64,000 bases of DNA, taken from Cyanobacteria bacterium PR.3.49. GTDB taxonomy: Bacteria; Cyanobacteriota; Vampirovibrionia; Obscuribacterales; Obscuribacteraceae. The stretch spans positions 2,560-66,559 of the forward strand of contig PNKB01000003.1 of NCBI GenBank assembly GCA_013997645.1. Direction: 5' to 3'. Shown here piece after piece: positions 15,033-25,350 of this stretch. The notes beneath the pieces were generated by a model. The model made no database searches and was not told the DNA's origin. It saw only the letters and a program-made list of their open reading frames with translations. A program made the translations under genes and the position numbers. Positions within the stretch are counted from its first letter, which is position 1. Every line of letters starts with the position of its first letter.

Positions 15033-15266
15033 ATGATGCCGACCCAAGTCCTATGCCATACCATCGCTCCAGCGCCTTCACTGGCTTCGCCTCAAATTGC
15101 TCCTGATGGAAGCCAATTCTATTCAAACAGTGCCGGCGATTTGGTTTTTGCAGAATACTCGTCTGGTGCAGTGGTAAGCATTCTTAAAGATTTGACCGCA
15201 GTACGCACCGCAGGTGGTGACTACTGGATCGTCAATTCTTCCGGTTTTTCTTTCCGTATGGATTAA
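15033..15266 (+). CDS. small hypothetical protein (77 aa)
   Basis: ATGATG start with GGAG ~11 nt upstream. Its stop overlaps the convergent yitJ-like stop by 4 nt. No domain recognised. Confidence 0.4.
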   Translation: MMPTQVLCHTIAPAPSLASPQIAPDGSQFYSNSAGDLVFAEYSSGAVVSILKDLTAVRTAGGDYWIVNSSGFSFRMD

Positions 15267-17242
15267 CTCTTGGCGCCGGCTTTGGCTTGTGATTTTGATT
15301 TGACGCGCTTGACGAACTGGCACATATCATCGTATCTGCCGAAAGACGGCACTACATAGGTGCCCTGGCAGAGCGGGCGCAGTTCTTCCAAAAGTTCTTC
15401 AGCAAGTTCCAACCCCACTGCCGCTCCCTGGTCTCCCGCTTTCTCCATCGCTTTGCGCACTTTTTCCGGAATCGTGATTCCAGGTACTTCGTTGTGCAAA
15501 TATTCTGCGTGTTTGAAGCTATGCAGCGGCATGATTCCGACAAGAATAGGAATTTTGCACTCACCGAATTCGTCGAGGAAGTCCGTGAGGTCGCTCAATT
15601 GATAGAGCGGTTGAGTCATGGCGAAGTGCGCGCCGGCCTCAATTTTTTTGCCGAAGCGATCGAGCTCTTGGGCACGGTTTTCGTGAGTCGGGTTCAATGC
15701 GCAAGCTATTGAAAGGCTTGTTGGTGTTCCAATCGAATTGCCGGCAATATCCAACCCTTGATTGAGCTGACTGATGATTTTGATCAAGCCGACCGAGTCT
15801 ACGTCGTAAACCGCGGTCGCATGTACGTAGTTGCCCAATGCCGGCGGATCGCCGGTGAGTGCTATTACATTGTGAATGCCTAAAGCCTGGCAGCCGAGCA
15901 AGTCCGCTTGTATGCCCATCAAATTGCGATCACGTGTCGTGAAGTGAATGATGGTTTCGATTTTCACGTTTTGAGAAATTAGTTGGCACGTCGCCAGCGA
16001 CGACATCCGCACGCGAGCCATCGGGCTGTCGCCTACATTAATAGCGTCTGCGCCTGCTTCTTTGAGCGTTTCGGCTGCCTGCAAAATCTTTCTGGCTATA
16101 GCCCCTTTGGGCGGATCCAGTTCTACACTCACATAGAAATCACCATTTTTCGGATTTTGCTTTGCCGCCGTCAGGCGAGCTGCCAGCGCGGGAAGCTCAC
16201 TCTTTATCTTGGGTGTTTCTTTCTTCGTGTCGGACGGTCGGACCTTATCTTGGGTCGAGATAAGCGCTTCCGGCTTGAGCGCTGGCAATTCTGCAGCAGT
16301 CGCCATCGATGCGGCTTTCTGCGAGGCAATGTATTTGTCCAGTTCGGCACGCATCGCTTTGATGTGGTGCGGAGTCGTACCGCAGCATCCGCCAATCAAG
16401 CGCGCACCTGCACGCACATATGGTTCTACATATGAAGCGCAGTAGTCGGGACCCGACATAAATTGGTATCTGCCGCCGCTCAAGCTGGGCTGACCGGCGT
16501 TAGGAAGGCATGAATAGTTAATCTTCGATGTGTCCACTCCTCTTTCTTTCAAGGAGTGAGTCAGGCGCAGCAGCGAATCGAATACAGGTCCGGGTCCGGC
16601 ACCGCAATTGATACCAATAACGTCTGGCGCCTCTTCACCAAGTTCGACAAAAAGCTTGACCACATCTTCTGGAGTAACGCCCAGAAGTGTGTGTCCATCA
16701 GGGGAAAAACTTAATTGTGCGACGACAGGGAGTTTTGAAACTGCACGGGCTGCACGCACCGCAATGGCTGTTTCATCCAGCGAGGACATTGTTTCTATCA
16801 GAAATAGATCTACTCCACCGGCCAAAAGCGCTTCCATTTGTTCGGTGAATGCTGACTTCAGATCGTCTTTGGTGACGTCACCGATGGGAGCCAACAATTT
16901 GCCGGTAGGACCTACAGAACCGGCGACGAACACTGGTTGTCCGCCCACTTCACGAGCGTTGCGGGCGATCTTTGCTGCCCATAAATTGATCTTGTGCGTT
17001 TCGTTTTCCAGACCAAAGCTAGCCAGACGAAACCTGTTGGCTGAGAAAGAATTGGTTTCGATAACATCTGCGCCCGCATTGATGTAGTCGATATGAACCT
17101 TCTGAATGTCGTCCTGCTTCGTCAGATTGAGGTGCTCGAAGCTCGCTTCCGGCGACGCGCCGCGCGCGTAGAGCAATGTCCCGATACCTCCGTCCGCCAG
17201 CAGCGGTCGTTTGGCAAGCTCTTTGAGAAATGGATGCGTCAT
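15263..17242 (-). CDS. yitJ: bifunctional homocysteine S-methyltransferase / 5,10-methylenetetrahydrofolate reductase (YitJ-like)
   Basis: An N-terminal Hcy methyltransferase (LLADGGIGTLLY, GGCCGTTPHHI) is fused to a C-terminal MTHFR (VSVELDPPKG, HFTTRDRN). I set the start at ATG 17242 (GGAG 4 nt upstream) instead of the track's TTG at 17377. Confidence 0.9.
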   Translation of the reverse strand: MTHPFLKELAKRPLLADGGIGTLLYARGASPEASFEHLNLTKQDDIQKVHIDYINAGADVIETNSFSANRFRLASFGLENETHKINLWAAKIARNAREVGGQPVFVAGSVGPTGKLLAPIGDVTKDDLKSAFTEQMEALLAGGVDLFLIETMSSLDETAIAVRAARAVSKLPVVAQLSFSPDGHTLLGVTPEDVVKLFVELGEEAPDVIGINCGAGPGPVFDSLLRLTHSLKERGVDTSKINYSCLPNAGQPSLSGGRYQFMSGPDYCASYVEPYVRAGARLIGGCCGTTPHHIKAMRAELDKYIASQKAASMATAAELPALKPEALISTQDKVRPSDTKKETPKIKSELPALAARLTAAKQNPKNGDFYVSVELDPPKGAIARKILQAAETLKEAGADAINVGDSPMARVRMSSLATCQLISQNVKIETIIHFTTRDRNLMGIQADLLGCQALGIHNVIALTGDPPALGNYVHATAVYDVDSVGLIKIISQLNQGLDIAGNSIGTPTSLSIACALNPTHENRAQELDRFGKKIEAGAHFAMTQPLYQLSDLTDFLDEFGECKIPILVGIMPLHSFKHAEYLHNEVPGITIPEKVRKAMEKAGDQGAAVGLELAEELLEELRPLCQGTYVVPSFGRYDDMCQFVKRVKSKSQAKAGAKS

Positions 17243-17678
17243 GTGACTCCGTGTTTGCTTCTTTGGCATAGAAATGAACTGGCGGGACAGTTGGGACGGG
17301 AATAGTAGCCAGGGTCGCCAACGGTTACCAGAGCGGTAATCGCGCCTCAGGACGCCTGCAAAGACGTCAAAGCCCAATTACACCCTAAAATCGAATTTTA
17401 ACATGCCCCGCCTGCGGCTAAATGTGCGGCAGATGGAGGGTTTACACTGTTTATTGCCGTTGTTGGCAAGCGCCCGTACCTAACCAGTTTTTAAGCAAAT
17501 AGGGGCGTAAAGCTCTTGCCCGCCCCCTTCGTGCAAAGGTTTAGTTACTCTTTCCTTGTCAAAACCTTCAGGTGGTGAACTGGCGGGCTTTTGCCTGTTA
17601 ATATACGGTTCGTACGGACCTCACGCGCGCGCTCCCGGTCTTTGTGAAGCCGCGCTCATTAATTCGAATTGGAAGCCA

Positions 17679-19484
17679 GTGACAGCAGACCCGAATCTCA
17701 TCCGCAATTTTTCCATCATCGCCCACATCGACCACGGCAAGTCGACACTGGCCGATCGCTTATTGGAATACACCAAGACAATCGCCAAGCGTGACATGCA
17801 GGCGCAGATTTTGGACACTATGGACATCGAGCGCGAGCGCGGCATTACCATCAAAGCTCAGCCGGCACGTATGGAATACACAGCCAAAGACGGCAAGCAG
17901 TACATTCTCAACCTGATCGACACACCCGGGCACGTCGATTTCGGTTACGAAGTTTCGCGCAGTCTGGCCGCTTGCGAAGGCGCCCTTCTGGTTGTAGATG
18001 CCAGTCAGGGTGTGGAAGCGCAAACGCTCGCCAATGTTCACCTGGCTGTGGAAAACAATCTCGAGATTGTTCCAATCATCAACAAGATCGATCTGCCCAG
18101 CGCCGAACCTGAGCGAATTCAAGCAGAGATCGAAGAGGTAATCGGACTGGATGCCAGCCACGCTGTATTGGCATCGGCAAAGAATTACATTGGTATTGAG
18201 GAAACGCTCGAGGCGATCGTCAACTACATTCCACCGCCGCCTAACACCGTCAAAGAGCCGCTGCGTGCACTGGTGTTCGACAGCTATTTCGAAAGCTATC
18301 GTGGCATCATCGTTTATTTCCGTGTTAAAGACGGTGAAATTCGCATGGGCGACAAAATTACGTTCATGGAGAATGACACTGATTTTGAGGTCACCGAATT
18401 GGGCGTATTGCGCCCGCAGCAGTTTAAAGTAGACAGGCTCGGACCCGGCGAAGTGGGCTATCTTGCTGCTTCCATCAAGGACGTCGCTACCTTAGTCGGC
18501 GACACCATTACCCATACGGACAAGCCCGCGCCGCAAGCTCTTCCCGGCTACCGCCCAGCCAAGCCAATGGTCTATGCCGGGCTGTATCCTGTCGATAACG
18601 AGCAATATCCTGACCTGCGCGAAGCGCTCGAAAAGCTCATCCTCAACGATTCATCTTTGCAGTACGAACCTGAAACATCAGAAGCGCTCGGCTTCGGTTT
18701 TCGCTGCGGATTTCTCGGACTTTTGCACATGGAGATTATTCAAGAGCGCCTTGAGCGCGAATACGATCTTCGCCTCATCACTACTGCGCCTTCAGTTGTT
18801 TATCGCGTGACGAAAACAGACGGCAGCGTTCTTATGATTGAGAATCCTGCATTCCTGCCTGATCCGAACTATCGGACCATGATTGAAGAGCCGTATGTGA
18901 CGGCATCGATTATGGTGCCCAATGATTTTGTCGGTCAGATCATGGAGCTTTGCCAGGGGCGCCGTGGGATTTTCCATGATATGAAATACCTGGACCCGCG
19001 CCGCGCGATGCTGCATTACGAGTTGCCGCTGGCGGAGATTATTACCGACTTTTTCGACCAATTAAAGTCGCGCTCTCGCGGATATGCAAGTCTCGACTAT
19101 CACTTCAACGAATATAGAGAATCGAATCTTGTAAAGCTGGATATTCTCATCAGCGGCGAGCCGTGCGATGCACTCTCGGCGATTGTTCACCGCGAGCGTG
19201 CTGCCAGTTACGGCAGGCTGCTGGCGGAGAAGTTGAAGAAGCTCATCCCGCGCCAGATGTTCGAAGTTCCAATTCAAGCTGCCATCGGCGGCAAGATCAT
19301 TGCCCGTGAAACGGTTTCCGCCCAGCGCAAAGATGTTTTGTCCAAGTGCTACGGTGGTGACATTTCCCGTAAGCGCAAACTTCTGGAGAAACAGAAAGAA
19401 GGTAAAAAGCGGATGAAGTCTGTCGGTCGCGTCGAGATCCCGCAGGAAGCATTTATGGCTGTACTTAAGCTCGAGGAAGACTAA
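17679..19484 (+). CDS. lepA: translation elongation factor 4
   Basis: GTPase motifs [25 protein letters not shown] and NKIDL, plus the LepA C-terminal region. The track ORF starts at TTG 17556. Typical LepA N-termini (..[16 protein letters not shown]) favour the in-frame GTG at 17679 (601 aa). Confidence 0.93.
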
Positions 19485-20525
19485 GTGCCCAAGCGTAAAT
19501 CCGACGGTGATGAAAAACCGAAGAAGCCCAAAACAAAGAAAGAAGTCACGGATAAATCTGATATCTCAAAAACTTCAAAGGCTCATTCGGAAAAAGGCTG
19601 TGACCGCGATCAACTTGATGCGCAAAAACTTACTGCCACAAACATTCCGGAAGAAGATGAAGAAGAGCCGGATTCACGCATATTCAAAATGCTTCAAGGG
19701 CAGCGCTTGTCACCGGAAGAAGTCCGTGAGTCTGCCGTTCGCGCACGGAAGCTCTTGATCGAATCCTGGAACAGCCGCGATGAATTGTATCGTGAGTTGT
19801 TTGGTGAGCCGGCATACGTCACACCCGGTCCATATGCACCACCAACGGTGCTCAAAGAGGAAGATGTAATTCTTCCTGAGGATCAAAAAGAACGGGGTGA
19901 GACAGGTGATCCCGGAGACCCTGAGCTAGACGAGCAGCATCTCAATGTTCTTGTTTATGCGCCCGATCCCACCAGACCTTATTGGACATATGTCACCGCC
20001 GGGTTGAGCAGTCCCTGGTTGCAAGATGCTCCGGCCGAAGTCACCGGCTTCGGTTGCGAAATCATGATCAAGTCTAAGGAAGACATGCCCTGGGCTGCGC
20101 AAATTCTGCGCACCATGGCGTTTTACATCCTCAATCATGCCGGCACTCTGTCACCCGGCGTGAGGATTGATTTAAACGGACCGATTATTCCGAATTCCGA
20201 TTCCAAACTCACGAATATCTTCATCTGGTATCCGGATGATGCTCCTGATTGCTGGTATTACTTGCCGTCGGGCGGCTTTGGATTGTTCATCGCGATTGGT
20301 ATCACGCCCGATGAGAGGCAATTCGCCGAGTCTATCGAAGAATACGGCACATGGTGCATTCAACAAGTGCTTCGTCAGATGGGGCACGATCAAATTACCG
20401 ATCCTTATCGCTCGAGCGTGATGGATCAGGAAGGCATTGGTCTGGCGCTTTTGAGAACGAAGTCATTCGCGGATAACTTCAGAGAAAACGTCGCATACGG
20501 AAGCGGCGAGTCTTTCGAGAGCTGA
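19485..20525 (+). CDS. SUFU-like (suppressor-of-fused family) domain protein with Lys/Glu-rich N-terminal tail
   Basis: C-terminal ~200 aa: YWTYVTAGLS..., GFGCEIMIKSKEDMPWAAQILRTMAFYILNH...PGVRIDLNGPI, GLFIAIGITPDERQFA. This resembles bacterial SUFU/Imm-SUFU domains by eye. The GTG start comes immediately after the lepA TAA. Confidence 0.6.
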   Translation: MPKRKSDGDEKPKKPKTKKEVTDKSDISKTSKAHSEKGCDRDQLDAQKLTATNIPEEDEEEPDSRIFKMLQGQRLSPEEVRESAVRARKLLIESWNSRDELYRELFGEPAYVTPGPYAPPTVLKEEDVILPEDQKERGETGDPGDPELDEQHLNVLVYAPDPTRPYWTYVTAGLSSPWLQDAPAEVTGFGCEIMIKSKEDMPWAAQILRTMAFYILNHAGTLSPGVRIDLNGPIIPNSDSKLTNIFIWYPDDAPDCWYYLPSGGFGLFIAIGITPDERQFAESIEEYGTWCIQQVLRQMGHDQITDPYRSSVMDQEGIGLALLRTKSFADNFRENVAYGSGESFES

Positions 20526-20591
20526 AAGCCCTGACGCATACCCGCCGCTCTTTCGATTGTGATGCTTCGCGTACTTTCGGTGACTGCGCAG

Positions 20592-21689
20592 CTATTTCAT
20601 AATATTGCTCAGTGCTTCTGAAGCGCCTTTGAGCATAATGGAATCCAGGTTATTGTCGGCGCGCACAGTGCCGGCTGTATTGACACCACTTACGTAAGTT
20701 GCGTCTGCCCCCTGTGGACCGAGGGAACCATTGGTGGCGCCTTGGAGCGTCGGCGCCATGCTGTCCGCGGCAACTATAGTTGCCGCTCCGACCGATGCCA
20801 GTTCTTCAGCTCCTTTTTTCCATGCATCCTTATCTGTTGATTTGACGGAGTAGGTGGCTCCTCCTGCAGTGATAAGAGTTGTACGAGTTCCATCGGCTCT
20901 GACAATCTCGGAGTGATACGAGAGTGGTTCGAAGTTACCGTTTGTGAGTTGCGCGATTTTTTTGAAAACTTTGATGCCGCCCTCTTCCTCGGTTGTTTCC
21001 AATCCCTCGCATCCAATCGTATTTATATGAATGCCTTTGGCAATCGCTTTTTTAGATTCAGCTCTCCAATCATAAGTTCTGCCCGCCAGGTGAGGAGGGG
21101 CGTCTCCTATGAGGAAAAGGAGTTTTGCAGTCTTCTCCTTTTCGTTCCATTGCAGGTCGTTGACCGCCGAATGCAATCCGCAATCCACAGCCTCAGGTCC
21201 ATCACCCCCTCCTTCGGCGCTGAGCTGCGAAATGTCCTTAACGACCTGGTCTATATTTTCGGAAAATGGAAACACCTTCGTGACGTAGTCATCGCCTTTG
21301 TCTCGGTAGGCGACCAAACCGACGCGAACAATCGGTTTTTCTTTGCTGGAGCTAAGTTTGCTCACCATCGATTTCACTTTGGCTTTGACGGTGTCGATTT
21401 CACCTTGCATTGAAGATGTTGTATCAATGCAGAATGCAACGTCCAGCCGTGCTCTCTTTCCGTCTTTTGCTTTTGTTGCCGGACCGAGCAATTTGGAATA
21501 GGTGTCTTTAGGGTCTGCGGTAACGACGTTCACGTCCGTGTCAGTCACCATCGCTACTGCGGACGTCGTAGAGGGCGCAGAAGTTGATGCCGTAGTTGAT
21601 GCAGTCATGCCCTGCGAATACAGATGCGAGATGAGCCCGTGAACGACGAACGCTGTGCCTACGGTCAGCAGTAAGGTTTTGGCGCGCAT
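20592..21689 (-). CDS. secreted von Willebrand factor A (vWA) domain protein
   Basis: MIDAS motif DVAFCIDTTSSM, then VGLVAYRD and LLFLIGDAPPH. The ATG at 21689 has GGAGG 8 nt upstream and gives the signal peptide MRAKTLLLTVGTAFVVHG. Confidence 0.8.
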   Translation of the reverse strand: MRAKTLLLTVGTAFVVHGLISHLYSQGMTASTTASTSAPSTTSAVAMVTDTDVNVVTADPKDTYSKLLGPATKAKDGKRARLDVAFCIDTTSSMQGEIDTVKAKVKSMVSKLSSSKEKPIVRVGLVAYRDKGDDYVTKVFPFSENIDQVVKDISQLSAEGGGDGPEAVDCGLHSAVNDLQWNEKEKTAKLLFLIGDAPPHLAGRTYDWRAESKKAIAKGIHINTIGCEGLETTEEEGGIKVFKKIAQLTNGNFEPLSYHSEIVRADGTRTTLITAGGATYSVKSTDKDAWKKGAEELASVGAATIVAADSMAPTLQGATNGSLGPQGADATYVSGVNTAGTVRADNNLDSIMLKGASEALSNIMK

Positions 21690-21878
21690 AGTAAATTCCT
21701 CCAATGGATTGGATTTGGGGCGCAGCATGAAACTTCAGCGCGTGGCACGCTGAGCAGCGCAATGCCCCACCAGGTCAGTTTGTTTGTTAGTAAGTTGATT
21801 CCAAAGTCGGAAGAAAGCTCCGACATTGCCAGTCTAGCTAGCGCCGCAATCTAAGTACACAGGGTTTTCCCTGACGAA

Positions 21879-22121
21879 TCATTCGAGCTCTGTTCCGCCA
21901 TCGGTCGGATGGTTCGTATCTTCAACTCTTTGCGCCCACTTACCCATTAGCTCGCGAGCAACTTCGACCATGTCAGGATCGAATTCATTTATGTAATCTC
22001 GATAGTGGTCGAATTTGGGATCAGTCTTCAAAGTTTCTGCTATTTCAGCATAAGACTTGCCACTCGCGAGCAGCTCGTTTAGCGCATCTTGGAACTCTTG
22101 AAGTTTGAGCGTGTCAGGCAT
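21879..22121 (-). CDS. small acidic protein, candidate MNIO partner subunit
   Basis: 80 aa. Its start overlaps the MNIO stop by 8 nt, indicating translational coupling. No domain recognised. Confidence 0.5.
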   Translation of the reverse strand: MPDTLKLQEFQDALNELLASGKSYAEIAETLKTDPKFDHYRDYINEFDPDMVEVARELMGKWAQRVEDTNHPTDGGTELE

Positions 22122-22995
22122 AACATAACTCCAGAATCTGCTCCATTGATTCGAAATCGTCGCGAAATTCGCTTTGAGCTTCGAGGGAAAACATTGTATT
22201 GCCGAGGCGTTCTAAAATAACAAATTCGATGTTGGGACAAAGTTTGAGCGCCAATGCCGCCAGGTTGAAAACTTCTTGCGGCACTCCATCATCGTGCGTG
22301 TCGCGACGCACCGCCGCTCTTTTGCCGGACACAGACGGGCTCCACGAGCCACCAGAGATATGGATTTCTCGAACTTTCTCGAGAGGGTAAGAGTTCAACA
22401 ACTCAAGTTCAGAAACTCCAAAGTTGGCGATCTGGCAGTAGGTGTTGTGCAAATCCAGAAGTAGGAAACCATCAACAGAAGAAATCAATTCGTCAATAAA
22501 TTGACCTTGTCGTTTTACGTCATTCACGCTGAAGGCGAAAGCTAGATTCTCTAGTCCCACAGGACATCCTGTGGCATCGGCATAACGCTTCAACATCTCT
22601 TTGCCGGTGGTTAGTGAAGCATCATCCATTGGTACTGAAAGTGGTGCACCATGCTTGATAGGCCCTGCTTCCGAAAAACCAAAATGCTCAGATGCATGAA
22701 CGTAATTTCGAGTTTTGAACTCTTCCTTTGCTAGTTTCAGCCATTCCTGCTGACGTTTGGAAAACCTTGCTGAAAGCGGCGATAGATTGACTCCGTGACC
22801 AGTAAGCGCCTTCGCCGAACTGTATTTGTCCAGTAATTCTTGAGCCCACTGATCTACAACTACACCGTTCCAGGTGAAATCAAAACTCCACTCAAGTGAC
22901 TTGACTCTTTCCTCTGCGAACAAGCGCTCAGTCGCCATCTGAAAATCTTCAGTCGGCATGAGTGAAAGTCCAAGCTTAGGTTTTTTTATTCGCAC
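22114..22995 (-). CDS. DUF692-family multinuclear non-heme iron oxidase (MNIO; MbnB/TglH/ChrH-like)
   Basis: The order of conserved blocks matches DUF692: GHGVNLS, ASEHF, VGLENL, LLLDLHNTYCQIANFG, EIHISGG, RRDTHDDGVP, FVILER. The GTG start lies 3 nt after the upstream stop. Confidence 0.8.
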   Translation of the reverse strand: MRIKKPKLGLSLMPTEDFQMATERLFAEERVKSLEWSFDFTWNGVVVDQWAQELLDKYSSAKALTGHGVNLSPLSARFSKRQQEWLKLAKEEFKTRNYVHASEHFGFSEAGPIKHGAPLSVPMDDASLTTGKEMLKRYADATGCPVGLENLAFAFSVNDVKRQGQFIDELISSVDGFLLLDLHNTYCQIANFGVSELELLNSYPLEKVREIHISGGSWSPSVSGKRAAVRRDTHDDGVPQEVFNLAALALKLCPNIEFVILERLGNTMFSLEAQSEFRDDFESMEQILELCYA

Positions 22996-22998
22996 AAA

Positions 22999-23919
22999 CT
23001 AACCCATGCCGCAAGCTGGGCAGGGAGCCGGCTGCGGAAACAGTTTGTCGCGGTCGGTGGTGTTCATGAGTTTGCTCAGCTGCTGAGTTTGAAACTCTTC
23101 TTGTTTCGTTTGACCAAGACTGCGGTACCAGAGAATCAATTTTCTGTGTGCTTCAATGCGCCAGGGCACTGTTTCCGGCAGGCGATCGTATTGCCTGATC
23201 GCACGCAACTGGTAGCCTTCGGCAGATTTGAACTCTCTTTCTTTGACTGTGTTCGGTTTGTCCGGGGAATTGTCCGGTACTACGTGAAACACCGGACTTT
23301 GGAAGCGAAAGCGCATGACCGGCATAGGAAACGTTTGTATCTCGGCGAGTTTCACCAGGTTTGCGGCAACATTTGTGATGTCTTCGTTGGTCAGTTTTTC
23401 GTTTTTCTCGAGCGAGGCAAGATGTTCATCAGCCGCTTTGATGCGGGCTTGTTTCTTGTCTGACTTTCCAATCACGTTATAGAAGTTGATGGTGCCAATC
23501 AAATAATTGATGCGCTCTTTCGACGCGGCCGGCAGCTCATTTGCAAGTTGCAAGCCGTCCAGCATCACTTTTTCTGCTTTTTCTTTCTGCGAGTTCTTGT
23601 TTGACGCCAGCATCATTGCCCAGTCCAGCATCAATCTGGGGACTTCAGCCTTTCTGTCCGGTTTCGATTTGAGATTTAAGAGCGCTTTGTTATAGATGAT
23701 CTCTGCGTCCTTCTCTCGGTCGTTCGACAAATAAACATTCGCCAGGTACATCAGTTGGTTCACGTACGAGGGATTGTTGGTACCGGCTCGTTGCTCAAAC
23801 ATCTTTACGCTGGCTTCGGCAGTTTCCACCGCTGCCTTATCTGCATATGCAGGCGCTGCGCCGGCGGCTATACCGAAAGCGAATAGCGAACTTAGGACTT
23901 TTGCAGGTTTGTTTTTCAT
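22999..23919 (-). CDS. exported TPR-like protein with C-terminal CPACGMG motif (candidate MNIO substrate)
   Basis: The ATG at 23919 (GGGGGAG 6 nt upstream) gives the signal peptide MKNKPAKVLSSLFAFGIAAGAAPAYA. The body consists of helical repeats. The last residues are ...LFPQPAPCPACGMG followed by TAG (motif encoded at 23002-23022). Confidence 0.7.
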   Translation of the reverse strand: MKNKPAKVLSSLFAFGIAAGAAPAYADKAAVETAEASVKMFEQRAGTNNPSYVNQLMYLANVYLSNDREKDAEIIYNKALLNLKSKPDRKAEVPRLMLDWAMMLASNKNSQKEKAEKVMLDGLQLANELPAASKERINYLIGTINFYNVIGKSDKKQARIKAADEHLASLEKNEKLTNEDITNVAANLVKLAEIQTFPMPVMRFRFQSPVFHVVPDNSPDKPNTVKEREFKSAEGYQLRAIRQYDRLPETVPWRIEAHRKLILWYRSLGQTKQEEFQTQQLSKLMNTTDRDKLFPQPAPCPACGMG

Positions 23920-23997
23920 GAGTGTCTCCCCCACTTCAATTTTCACTCGTGCGCGAAAATAAACACTGGGGTTAACCCGTAAGATAGGCGTTTTTGC

Positions 23998-25065
23998 TTA
24001 TCGTTTTGTTGCGGTGGTGAGCTTTTCTGCGTTTGAGTTTTTTGTTTCTGCAGGTTTCGCTGTCGCAGTTTTATCGGGTTTTGTCCAATAATGATCGCGG
24101 CAGGTCGAATAGTATTCGATGGTTTTTCTGATGCCGTCTTCCAATTCGGTGGTCGGGCGCCAGCCGGTGTAGCGCTCGATTTTGGAGATATCCGAGTAGA
24201 AATCGCCGGGCTCTTGAGCTTTTCTTTCTGCGGAAAATTCGGCGAATTCCCAGCGTCCGGATTTTGCCACCTTAACAATGGTGTCGCAAAGTTCGCGGAA
24301 AGTTATCGGTTTGTCTGAGCCGACATTGAAGATTTCGCCGTAGCATTCGGGTGTGGTAGCAACGCGTAAGATGGCGTCGATGCAATCGTCGACATAGACG
24401 AAGTCGCGTAAAATGCTGCCGTCGCCGAACAGTTGGATGGTTTCATCATCCATTGCCAGACGGATAAACCAGTTGAACACGCCAAAGCGCGAGTGCATCA
24501 TTTGCGAGCGCGGACCGTAGAGGTTGCTCAAGCGCAGATTGACTGAGCGGATGCCGTGCACATCGTTATAGACCTTGATGATTTTTTCAGCGGTCAAGTT
24601 GGAAATTTCGTAGATGCCCTTCGGATTGGTCGGCGCTTCTTCATTTACAGGGAATGAAACTGCCGGTCCGTACTGCCCACGGGTGCCTGCGTTTACCAAA
24701 ATCGCCTTCGGATTATGTTTGCGCAACGCCTCCATAACGATGGCGGTGCCGGTGATATTCATCTCAATATCGGGAAATGGATTTGAGAGGCTCATCAGGT
24801 GGCAAACTTGACCGGCAAGGTGGAAAACATAGTCCTGGTCGCGCACAAGCCAATTGACGGCTTGCTGGTCGCGGATATCGCAGAAATTGATGCGGATCTT
24901 GTCGGACTCCGTTACGTTATATACGTTGCCGCCGTAATCCGGAATCATCGCGTCGAGGATGGTCACTTTGGCACCCAGCTCAGCCAGCTTGATAGCCAGA
25001 TTGGAACCGATGAAGCCCATGCCACCGGTTATGAGAGCTGTCTTACCTTTAAATTGTTCGAGCAT
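23998..25065 (-). CDS. NAD-dependent epimerase/dehydratase (extended SDR, nucleotide-sugar enzyme)
   Basis: TGGMGFIGSNL Rossmann motif, RLSNLYGPR and RDFVYVDD blocks. The expected YxxxK site reads YEISN by my alignment. It has a Lys-rich C-terminal tail. ATG at 25065. Confidence 0.88.
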   Translation of the reverse strand: MLEQFKGKTALITGGMGFIGSNLAIKLAELGAKVTILDAMIPDYGGNVYNVTESDKIRINFCDIRDQQAVNWLVRDQDYVFHLAGQVCHLMSLSNPFPDIEMNITGTAIVMEALRKHNPKAILVNAGTRGQYGPAVSFPVNEEAPTNPKGIYEISNLTAEKIIKVYNDVHGIRSVNLRLSNLYGPRSQMMHSRFGVFNWFIRLAMDDETIQLFGDGSILRDFVYVDDCIDAILRVATTPECYGEIFNVGSDKPITFRELCDTIVKVAKSGRWEFAEFSAERKAQEPGDFYSDISKIERYTGWRPTTELEDGIRKTIEYYSTCRDHYWTKPDKTATAKPAETKNSNAEKLTTATKR

Positions 25066-25350
25066 GATGACCTTTGATTGATTCAACTTGTATGTTTTCG
25101 AACCCTAAATTTGCGCTAAGTATTCGCGAATCACAGGCTCTGCTTGAAACGTTGATTGCGTGCGCGTTTGGTCAAACGCCGGCACGTAAATCAGAGGCAC
25201 TGATTTTACCATGCAAGACGGTCACAATTGCCGGAAATGCCAGCGCCCTGTTGCTTCTGGAAAGATGTCAATTAAGTTGCCCTTAATCTGCTTCTTGACC
25301 ATTTCTTCTAGTATTGATGGACCCGTTTCTACAGTAAAAGGAGCTAATCG

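Follow-up and report, generated by a model that had tools for sequence, protein, structure and literature searches.

A probable mel-type locus in Obscuribacterales genome PR.3.49: an MNIO enzyme beside a secreted TPR-like protein that ends in CPACGMG

We analyzed a 64-kb stretch of DNA (the window) from PR.3.49, a metagenome-assembled genome (MAG) of the Obscuribacterales, in which three minus-strand genes encode a secreted tetratricopeptide repeat (TPR)-like protein ending in CPACGMG, an enzyme of the DUF692/MNIO family, and a small acidic protein. We call these genes melA, melH, and melHc after the mel cluster (MelA1/MelH/MelHc) of Ca. Melainabacteria isolate SJ512 (PNAS 2026;123(14):e2532672123, PMC13056109; bioRxiv 10.1101/2025.10.31.685832, first posted in November 2025 and followed by PNAS in March 2026). 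The melA orthologue (22999–23919; C0507_01095, MBA3855478.1) encodes 306 aa (34.6 kDa, pI 9.3) and the melH orthologue (22114–22995; C0507_01090, MBA3855477.1) 293 aa (33.0 kDa, pI 5.2). The melHc orthologue (21879–22121; C0507_01085, MBA3855476.1) encodes 80 aa (9.2 kDa, pI 4.4). A lookup by exact sequence tied the open reading frames (ORFs) of all three to these NCBI entries. For melA we preferred the ATG start, giving 306 aa, over a GTG at 23946 that would give 315 aa, because homologues begin at the MK(N)K position. The melA product ends in ...DRDKLFPQPAPCPACGMG (in a longer view, ...TTDRDKLFPQPAPCPACGMG), followed by TAG. Three nt past this stop lies the GTG start of melH at 22995, an upstream start backed by an N-terminal KPKLGLSLMP block conserved in orthologues, and the melHc ATG, within ATGCCTGA, overlaps the melH stop by 8 nt. 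An earlier interpretation made from the DNA letters (the sequence-only reading) had described three coupled genes with this gap and overlap, and ORF analysis confirmed the arrangement. No other ORF ending in CPxCGxG was found in the window. A "CPACG-stop" frame at 17404–17418 on the plus strand (...NRILTCPACG-stop, just upstream of lepA) was rejected as a chance occurrence, with 10 codons between stops and an SJ512 equivalent that reads differently. Promoter and terminator scans of 20400–25300 gave counts at or below shuffle expectation and were uninformative.

The first 26 residues of MelA (23842–23919, minus strand), MKNKPAKVLSSLFAFGIAAGAAPAYA followed by DK, read as a Sec/signal peptidase I (SPI) signal peptide with a basic n-region, a hydrophobic core, and an AxA site. 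The signal ends AAPAYA before DK with no lipobox Cys, and the only Cys residues of MelA are C300 and C303; the lipobox with a signal peptidase II Cys that marks DAG-RiPP precursors is absent. Between signal and tail, Pfam TPR_12 matched below threshold (22 bits against a cutoff of 30.1). The AlphaFold 2 (AF2) model (pLDDT 87.4) is an all-alpha solenoid of 13 helices, with low confidence at residues 1–25, in a linker at residues about 294–306, and at the extreme tail. A Foldseek search of the model against the PDB returned the TPR domains of the kinesin light chains KLC1 and KLC2 and of LGN (probability 1.0, TM 0.35–0.45). On the model, the TPR likeness of the body appears to be only a generic resemblance, and we set the fold search aside as a hint of function since it returned generic TPR solenoids alone. 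The sequence, the model, and the Foldseek solenoid matches nonetheless agree with the earlier description of a 306-aa, TPR-like protein with a Sec signal and a CPACGMG terminus.

The C-terminal recognition and core segment of MelA, LFPQPAPCPACGMG, spans 23002–23043 on the minus strand, with CPACGMG at 23002–23022 and the stop codon at 22999–23001. Across 22 MelA homologues, the most divergent of which are about 40% identical, L293-F294-P295, C300, C303, G304, M305, and G306 are invariant, and the body is conserved along its whole length (mean column identity 56%). A conserved short segment, TTDRDKLFPQP, precedes the core. Because both Cys residues, the GMG, and the LFP are invariant in this alignment, the CPACGMG tail is, at sequence level, not a chance feature. 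Residues 274–306 (33 residues) match positions 39–71 of the NCBIfam ChrA precursor model (NF050124, chryseobasin_RiPP) with 23.9 bits, below the 50-bit cutoff for a full-length ChrA equivalog. The identification of CPACGMG as a ChrA-type core in the sequence-only reading was borne out by the literature.

MelH has no signal peptide and matches Pfam PF05114 (MbnB_TglH_ChrH) over residues 48–264 with 99.4 bits (cutoff 25, E 2.6e-28), so that the profile search proposed for this enzyme places it in the MNIO family. The seven motif blocks listed for it are all present, at residues 67, 102, 148, 178, 210, 232, and 260. Nine residues, H67, H104, E149, D181, N184, H212, D232, H234, and E262, are invariant in 21 MelH homologues from Melainabacteria and Bacteroidota. 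We take these nine positions to be the iron ligands, from the known structures of MbnB and TglH. The closest PDB relatives by sequence are TglH (8hci), with which the blocks LEN, LDLHN, (I/V)H(I/L)xGG, HD, and ILE align, and 3bww, with which HG..LS, S.H, EN, LD..N, and IHI.G align. Of the NCBIfam models, MNIO_ChrH fits best, with 320.6 bits over positions 1–283 of 363, against 81 bits for BufB, 64 for HvfB, and 15 for MbnB; ChrH is therefore the closest of the MNIO models. The score is below the 600 bits, over the full 363 positions, required of a Chryseobacterium ChrH equivalog (NF050165). CPACGMG and its stop codon lie 3 nt upstream of the melH start, the precursor adjacency expected of the ChrH subfamily. 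By these matches MelH is a ChrH-subfamily MNIO with a predicted TIM barrel and a predicted multinuclear iron site. The DUF692 match, the expected metal ligands, and the conserved tail, the loss of any of which had been named as a reason to abandon the sequence-only reading, are all in place.

A full-text literature search for CPACGMG led to the mel paper. In BLASTP against its Supporting Information (SI) sequences, which were machine-read with some letters dropped, MelA is 82% identical to MelA1, MelH 88% identical to its counterpart, and MelHc 83% identical over 64 residues. The corresponding tblastn identities against the SJ512 contig (JADYYD010000159.1) are 84%, 90%, and 83%. Synteny with SJ512 extends through a glycosyltransferase family 2 (GT2) gene, a DegT aminotransferase, and an NAD-epimerase on one side and through a secreted vWA-domain protein, a SUFU-like protein, and LepA on the other, with flanking genes 84–99% identical. 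We compared the window with 11 Melainabacteria/Obscuribacterales loci (L001–L011), of which L001 is SJ512. The order MelA-MelH-MelHc recurs in all of them, with one to six MelA-type genes preceding MelH. MBA3855477.1 is itself listed by accession and organism in the mel paper's SI table of ChrH-subfamily proteins. In PR.3.49, the locus thus very probably represents the orthologue of the Melainabacteria mel cluster. With the trio orthologous and syntenic and the enzyme in that SI table, neither the type of system nor this particular entry is new. The earlier statement that no described system has this architecture was wrong.

The likeness to SJ512 covers gene order, coupling, and flanks, a 306-aa TPR substrate with an SPI signal that ends in LFPQPAPCPACGMG, and an MNIO without a C-terminal domain followed by a separate helical protein of roughly 70–80 aa. 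The differences are few. The window comes from another MAG, its MelHc has 80 aa as against 68 aa in SJ512, the extra residues forming an acidic C-terminal tail, and it has no counterpart of the second, divergent MelA-like gene (L001:5395–6366, plus strand, 23% identical, tail ...GCGHLVWWERWNMAEDPPYVACGMG) that separates MelHc from vWA in SJ512. In an alignment of window positions 21690–21878 with L001:5360–6582, the flank of the vWA start aligns at 89%; the flanks join cleanly, and no remnant of that second gene is present in the window.

The activity of the trio is known from published experiments on the SJ512 proteins. Several cyanobacterial clusters were reported to encode TPR precursors of >30 kDa ending in CPACGMG, and MelA1 is a 34-kDa TPR protein with an SPI signal by SignalP that behaves as a dimer in size-exclusion chromatography (PNAS 2026;123(14):e2532672123). 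MelH pulls down MelHc. In E. coli, MelA1 co-expressed with MelH was unmodified, and MelA1 with both MelH and MelHc acquired a −4 Da modification at CPACGMG, which the authors equated with the unmethylated macrocycle and hydantoin characterized by nuclear magnetic resonance for DybA (PNAS 2026;123(14):e2532672123). The LysC fragment of MelA1 in their SI is LFPQPAPCPACGMG, which shifted from 1388.62 Da to 1384.58 Da (PNAS 2026;123(14):e2532672123). The C-terminal LysC peptide of the window's MelA, LFPQPAPCPACGMG, is identical, and its computed masses of 1388.616 Da and 1384.585 Da (the −4 Da form) agree with the published ones. Experiments on orthologues that are 82–90% identical therefore support the suggestion that an MNIO modifies the C-terminus of a full-length secreted protein.

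Alongside the third gene, the sequence-only reading had mentioned the small partner proteins usual in MNIO systems. The SJ512 orthologue of this gene is needed for activity, but its product is not a generic partner of the MbnC, TglI, or ChrI kind. ChrH-family MNIOs are extended at the C-terminus by a helical bundle of about 7.8 kDa, which is a separate protein in Cyanobacteriota; the authors based the structural equivalence of MelHc and the ChrH C-domain on AlphaFold 3 (AF3) models (PNAS 2026;123(14):e2532672123). By its orthology to the SJ512 protein, the 80-aa ORF is MelHc, which probably corresponds, as a separate polypeptide, to the C-terminal helical domain of ChrH-family enzymes. An ORF of 67–83 aa follows MelH in all 11 Melainabacteria loci. 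An hhalign comparison of 12 MelHc sequences with the C-terminal 85 aa of nine fused enzymes was collinear over 53 columns, a weak match (probability 21%, E 1.1e-3), and the two sets have in common a terminal block, [FW]xPxM[VL]ExAxxxxxKW. The 80-aa protein gave no tblastn match at 1e-5 in the fused Bacteroidota loci. Its position, its size, and the published AF3 comparison favor the view that MelHc is the counterpart of the fused C-domain. In one public source (JGI/IMG and others), a protein from the MelHc 90%-identity cluster (P0078) goes by the name "thiaminase", which is unsupported and looks like an annotation error.

In the mechanism we propose, MelA would be made in the cytoplasm with its Sec signal peptide. 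Before export, a MelH-MelHc heterodimer, with MelH as a TIM-barrel MNIO carrying a tri-iron site, would bind the C-terminal LFPQPxPCPACGMG tail. A four-electron oxidation with O2 (−4 Da) would join the thiol of the first Cys to the beta-carbon of the second, closing a macrocycle, and the backbone would be rearranged to a hydantoin (imidazolidinedione) with a free-thiol thiohemiaminal, without S-methylation. Modified MelA would then be exported by Sec and cut by SPI after AYA26, leaving a mature protein, probably dimeric, whose site of action would be the periplasm or the cell exterior. We place modification before export because a signal peptide is present on MelA but not on MelH or MelHc, an order that parallels the one proposed for DybA (PNAS 2026;123(14):e2532672123). 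By analogy with SJ512, we expect the unmethylated −4 Da macrocycle and hydantoin congener as the product, and not the S-methylated one of ChrA. We infer that the chemistry is the same in this organism, that it precedes export, and that the product is not processed further.

Several points weigh against this account. Gene anatomy, family membership, ligand and tail conservation, orthology, and synteny were observed on PR.3.49 itself; the experiments concern SJ512 proteins, to which the PR.3.49 set is 82–90% and not 100% identical. The published product came from E. coli, and native methylation or further processing could still occur; the authors leave the source of methylation in ChrA and ArlA open (PNAS 2026;123(14):e2532672123). 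The order of modification and export follows solely from the lack of signal peptides in MelH and MelHc. With about 320 bits on the NCBIfam ChrH model, MelH is far short of the 600 bits asked of an equivalog. Sequence comparison gives only a weak signal for homology between MelHc and the fused ChrH C-domain (hhalign probability 21%). An in silico fusion of MelH and MelHc reaches only position 291 of 363 in the NCBIfam ChrH model, with 325 bits, a test that neither proves nor disproves domain homology because that model is a narrow Chryseobacterium equivalog.

Comparison with other MNIO systems sets the locus nearest to SJ512. The chryseobasin system ChrA/ChrH(/ChrI) of Chryseobacterium (ACS Cent Sci 2023;9:1008) has the same C-terminal CPACGMG core, a substrate with an SPI signal, and an enzyme of the same MNIO subfamily. 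It differs in that ChrA is a peptide of roughly 70 aa, ChrH has about 363 aa with a fused C-domain, and the product is S-methylated; at 320 against 600 bits for the enzyme and 23.9 against 50 for the precursor, neither window protein is an equivalog. The DybA/DybH lipoprotein systems of Bacteroidota, which are DAG-RiPPs (hybrids of lipoproteins with RiPPs, peptides made by the ribosome and modified after translation), likewise have a CPxCGxG tail, unmethylated −4 Da chemistry, and a general secretion signal. However, DybA has about 50–67 aa, carries a lipobox Cys for signal peptidase II, and is lipidated, whereas MelA is folded and without a lipobox, and the DybH enzymes are fused proteins of 374–395 aa. 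MbnBC, TglHI, BufBC, and HvfBC share with the window the DUF692 TIM-barrel fold, the multinuclear iron ligand set, and oxidative Cys chemistry, but they have DUF2063-type or other partner proteins and other products, and MelH scores far lower on their NCBIfam models. Neither TPR precursors nor Melainabacteria are mentioned in the Microb Genom 2025 paper on the MNIO landscape.

The sequence-only reading had also allowed for an exceptionally long leader. The 306-aa protein would then be a carrier from which a protease releases a short macrocyclic peptide after modification and export. The conserved TTDRDKLFPQP segment before the core and the low-confidence linker at residues about 294–306 fit such a role, ChrA-type relatives are short peptides, and a secreted prolyl oligopeptidase in one Bacteroidota cluster could cleave the product there (PNAS 2026;123(14):e2532672123). 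We nevertheless consider a disposable leader improbable. The MelA body is modeled with confidence as a TPR solenoid (pLDDT 87.4) and is conserved from end to end (mean column identity 56%), and MelA1 dimerizes stably, so that the body resembles a functional domain. Neither the window locus nor the conserved core shared by L001–L011 showed a protease or a peptide exporter. Modification of a folded protein that is then exported whole is the interpretation we retain.

Downstream of the trio, a secreted vWA-domain protein is encoded at 20592–21689 on the minus strand; its identification in the sequence-only reading held up, with a signal peptide and matches to PF25106 and PF00092. It could belong to a four-gene system as a functional partner, for example as a receptor that binds the modified tail through the metal of its metal-ion-dependent adhesion site (MIDAS). 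Its gene is on the same strand, 190 nt past melHc, and the adjacency is kept in the window, L001, L002, and L006. We regard this as unlikely. The vWA gene is missing from L003 despite the remaining synteny there (MelHc, SUFU-like, LepA), no vWA match was obtained in L004–L011, SJ512 has one further gene between MelHc and vWA, and shared ancestry of close relatives explains the adjacency. The vWA gene is thus probably not part of the system; a functional link to it would be the sole undescribed element of the window proper.

Other neighbors fall outside the trio. The epimerase, aminotransferase, and GT2 genes are envelope-sugar genes that are syntenic in close relatives only. A 346-aa SUFU-domain protein (PF05076, 69.6 bits) with a Lys/Glu-rich N-terminal region is encoded at 19485–20525 on the plus strand, abutting the lepA ORF that ends at 19484, and its gene is conserved and syntenic in L001, L002, L003, and L006. 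At 15263–17377 on the minus strand lies a gene for a 704-aa fusion of homocysteine S-methyltransferase (PF02574) and methylenetetrahydrofolate reductase (PF02219), probably a housekeeping protein.

That the native product is instead of the S-methylated ChrA type (+10 Da net) is very improbable, for although ChrH and ArlH yield methylated products on the same motif and Arl falls in a clade labeled Cyanobacteriota/Myxococcota that also holds the Mel enzymes (PNAS 2026;123(14):e2532672123), MelA1, MelH, and MelHc in E. coli gave −4 Da alone, and no methyltransferase is present in the trio or its conserved neighbors. The methyltransferase/reductase fusion at 15263–17377 was considered as an S-methylation partner and rejected as a housekeeping gene that is syntenic beyond LepA. 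The −4 Da free-thiol form remains the product we expect.

The relatives of the window hold a second family of secreted TPR-like proteins, found in Obscuribacterales-type MAGs, with tails of the form ...ILYPQxxxCGx(L/F/I)VWW-x(9-15)-CG(M/R)G. The Cys residues in these tails are 14–22 residues apart (mode 16), as against 2 in CPACGMG, and the family comprises at least 40 protein clusters. Genes of this kind stand beside MelH/MelHc at L001:5395–6366 (plus strand), L003:2735–5961, L004:2290–5294, L005:3687–5945, L006:2802–5961, L008:3120–5989, and L010:4830–5948. Since wide-spaced tails are the sole candidate precursors in the examined stretches of L004, L005, and L007–L010, they suggest themselves as substrates. 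That these proteins are true MelH/MelHc substrates in related Obscuribacterales, whose MelH is 70–78% identical to the window's, is a tentative proposal from gene context, and we think it rather unlikely. If it were true, a MelH-type enzyme would close a macrocycle of about 16–24 residues on a folded protein. In its text and SI, as distinct from its figures, the mel paper is silent on the wide-spaced class, but the numbered name "MelA1" implies that its authors had seen other MelA genes. The window carries only the classical CPACGMG precursor, and the wide-spaced class is absent from it.

Other tails were seen among the compared loci. Two MelA paralogues in L002 (L002:4012–4929 and L002:4948–5961) end in ...PCPGMCGLG and ...GCNGRCGMG, with three residues between the Cys, and the variants CYGCGRG, CHGCGRG, and CPGCGRG occur in L002, L003, and L006.

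The PR.3.49 locus adds no new kind of system. Its value is as an independent confirmation of the conserved trio and tail. The mel system means that MNIO chemistry of the RiPP type can act on the C-terminus of a folded, secreted 34-kDa protein and that the C-domain specific to ChrH can be a subunit in its own right, two points that had already been shown on a close orthologue. With its single precursor, the PR.3.49 locus is a minimal version that might suit functional studies of what the modified protein does.

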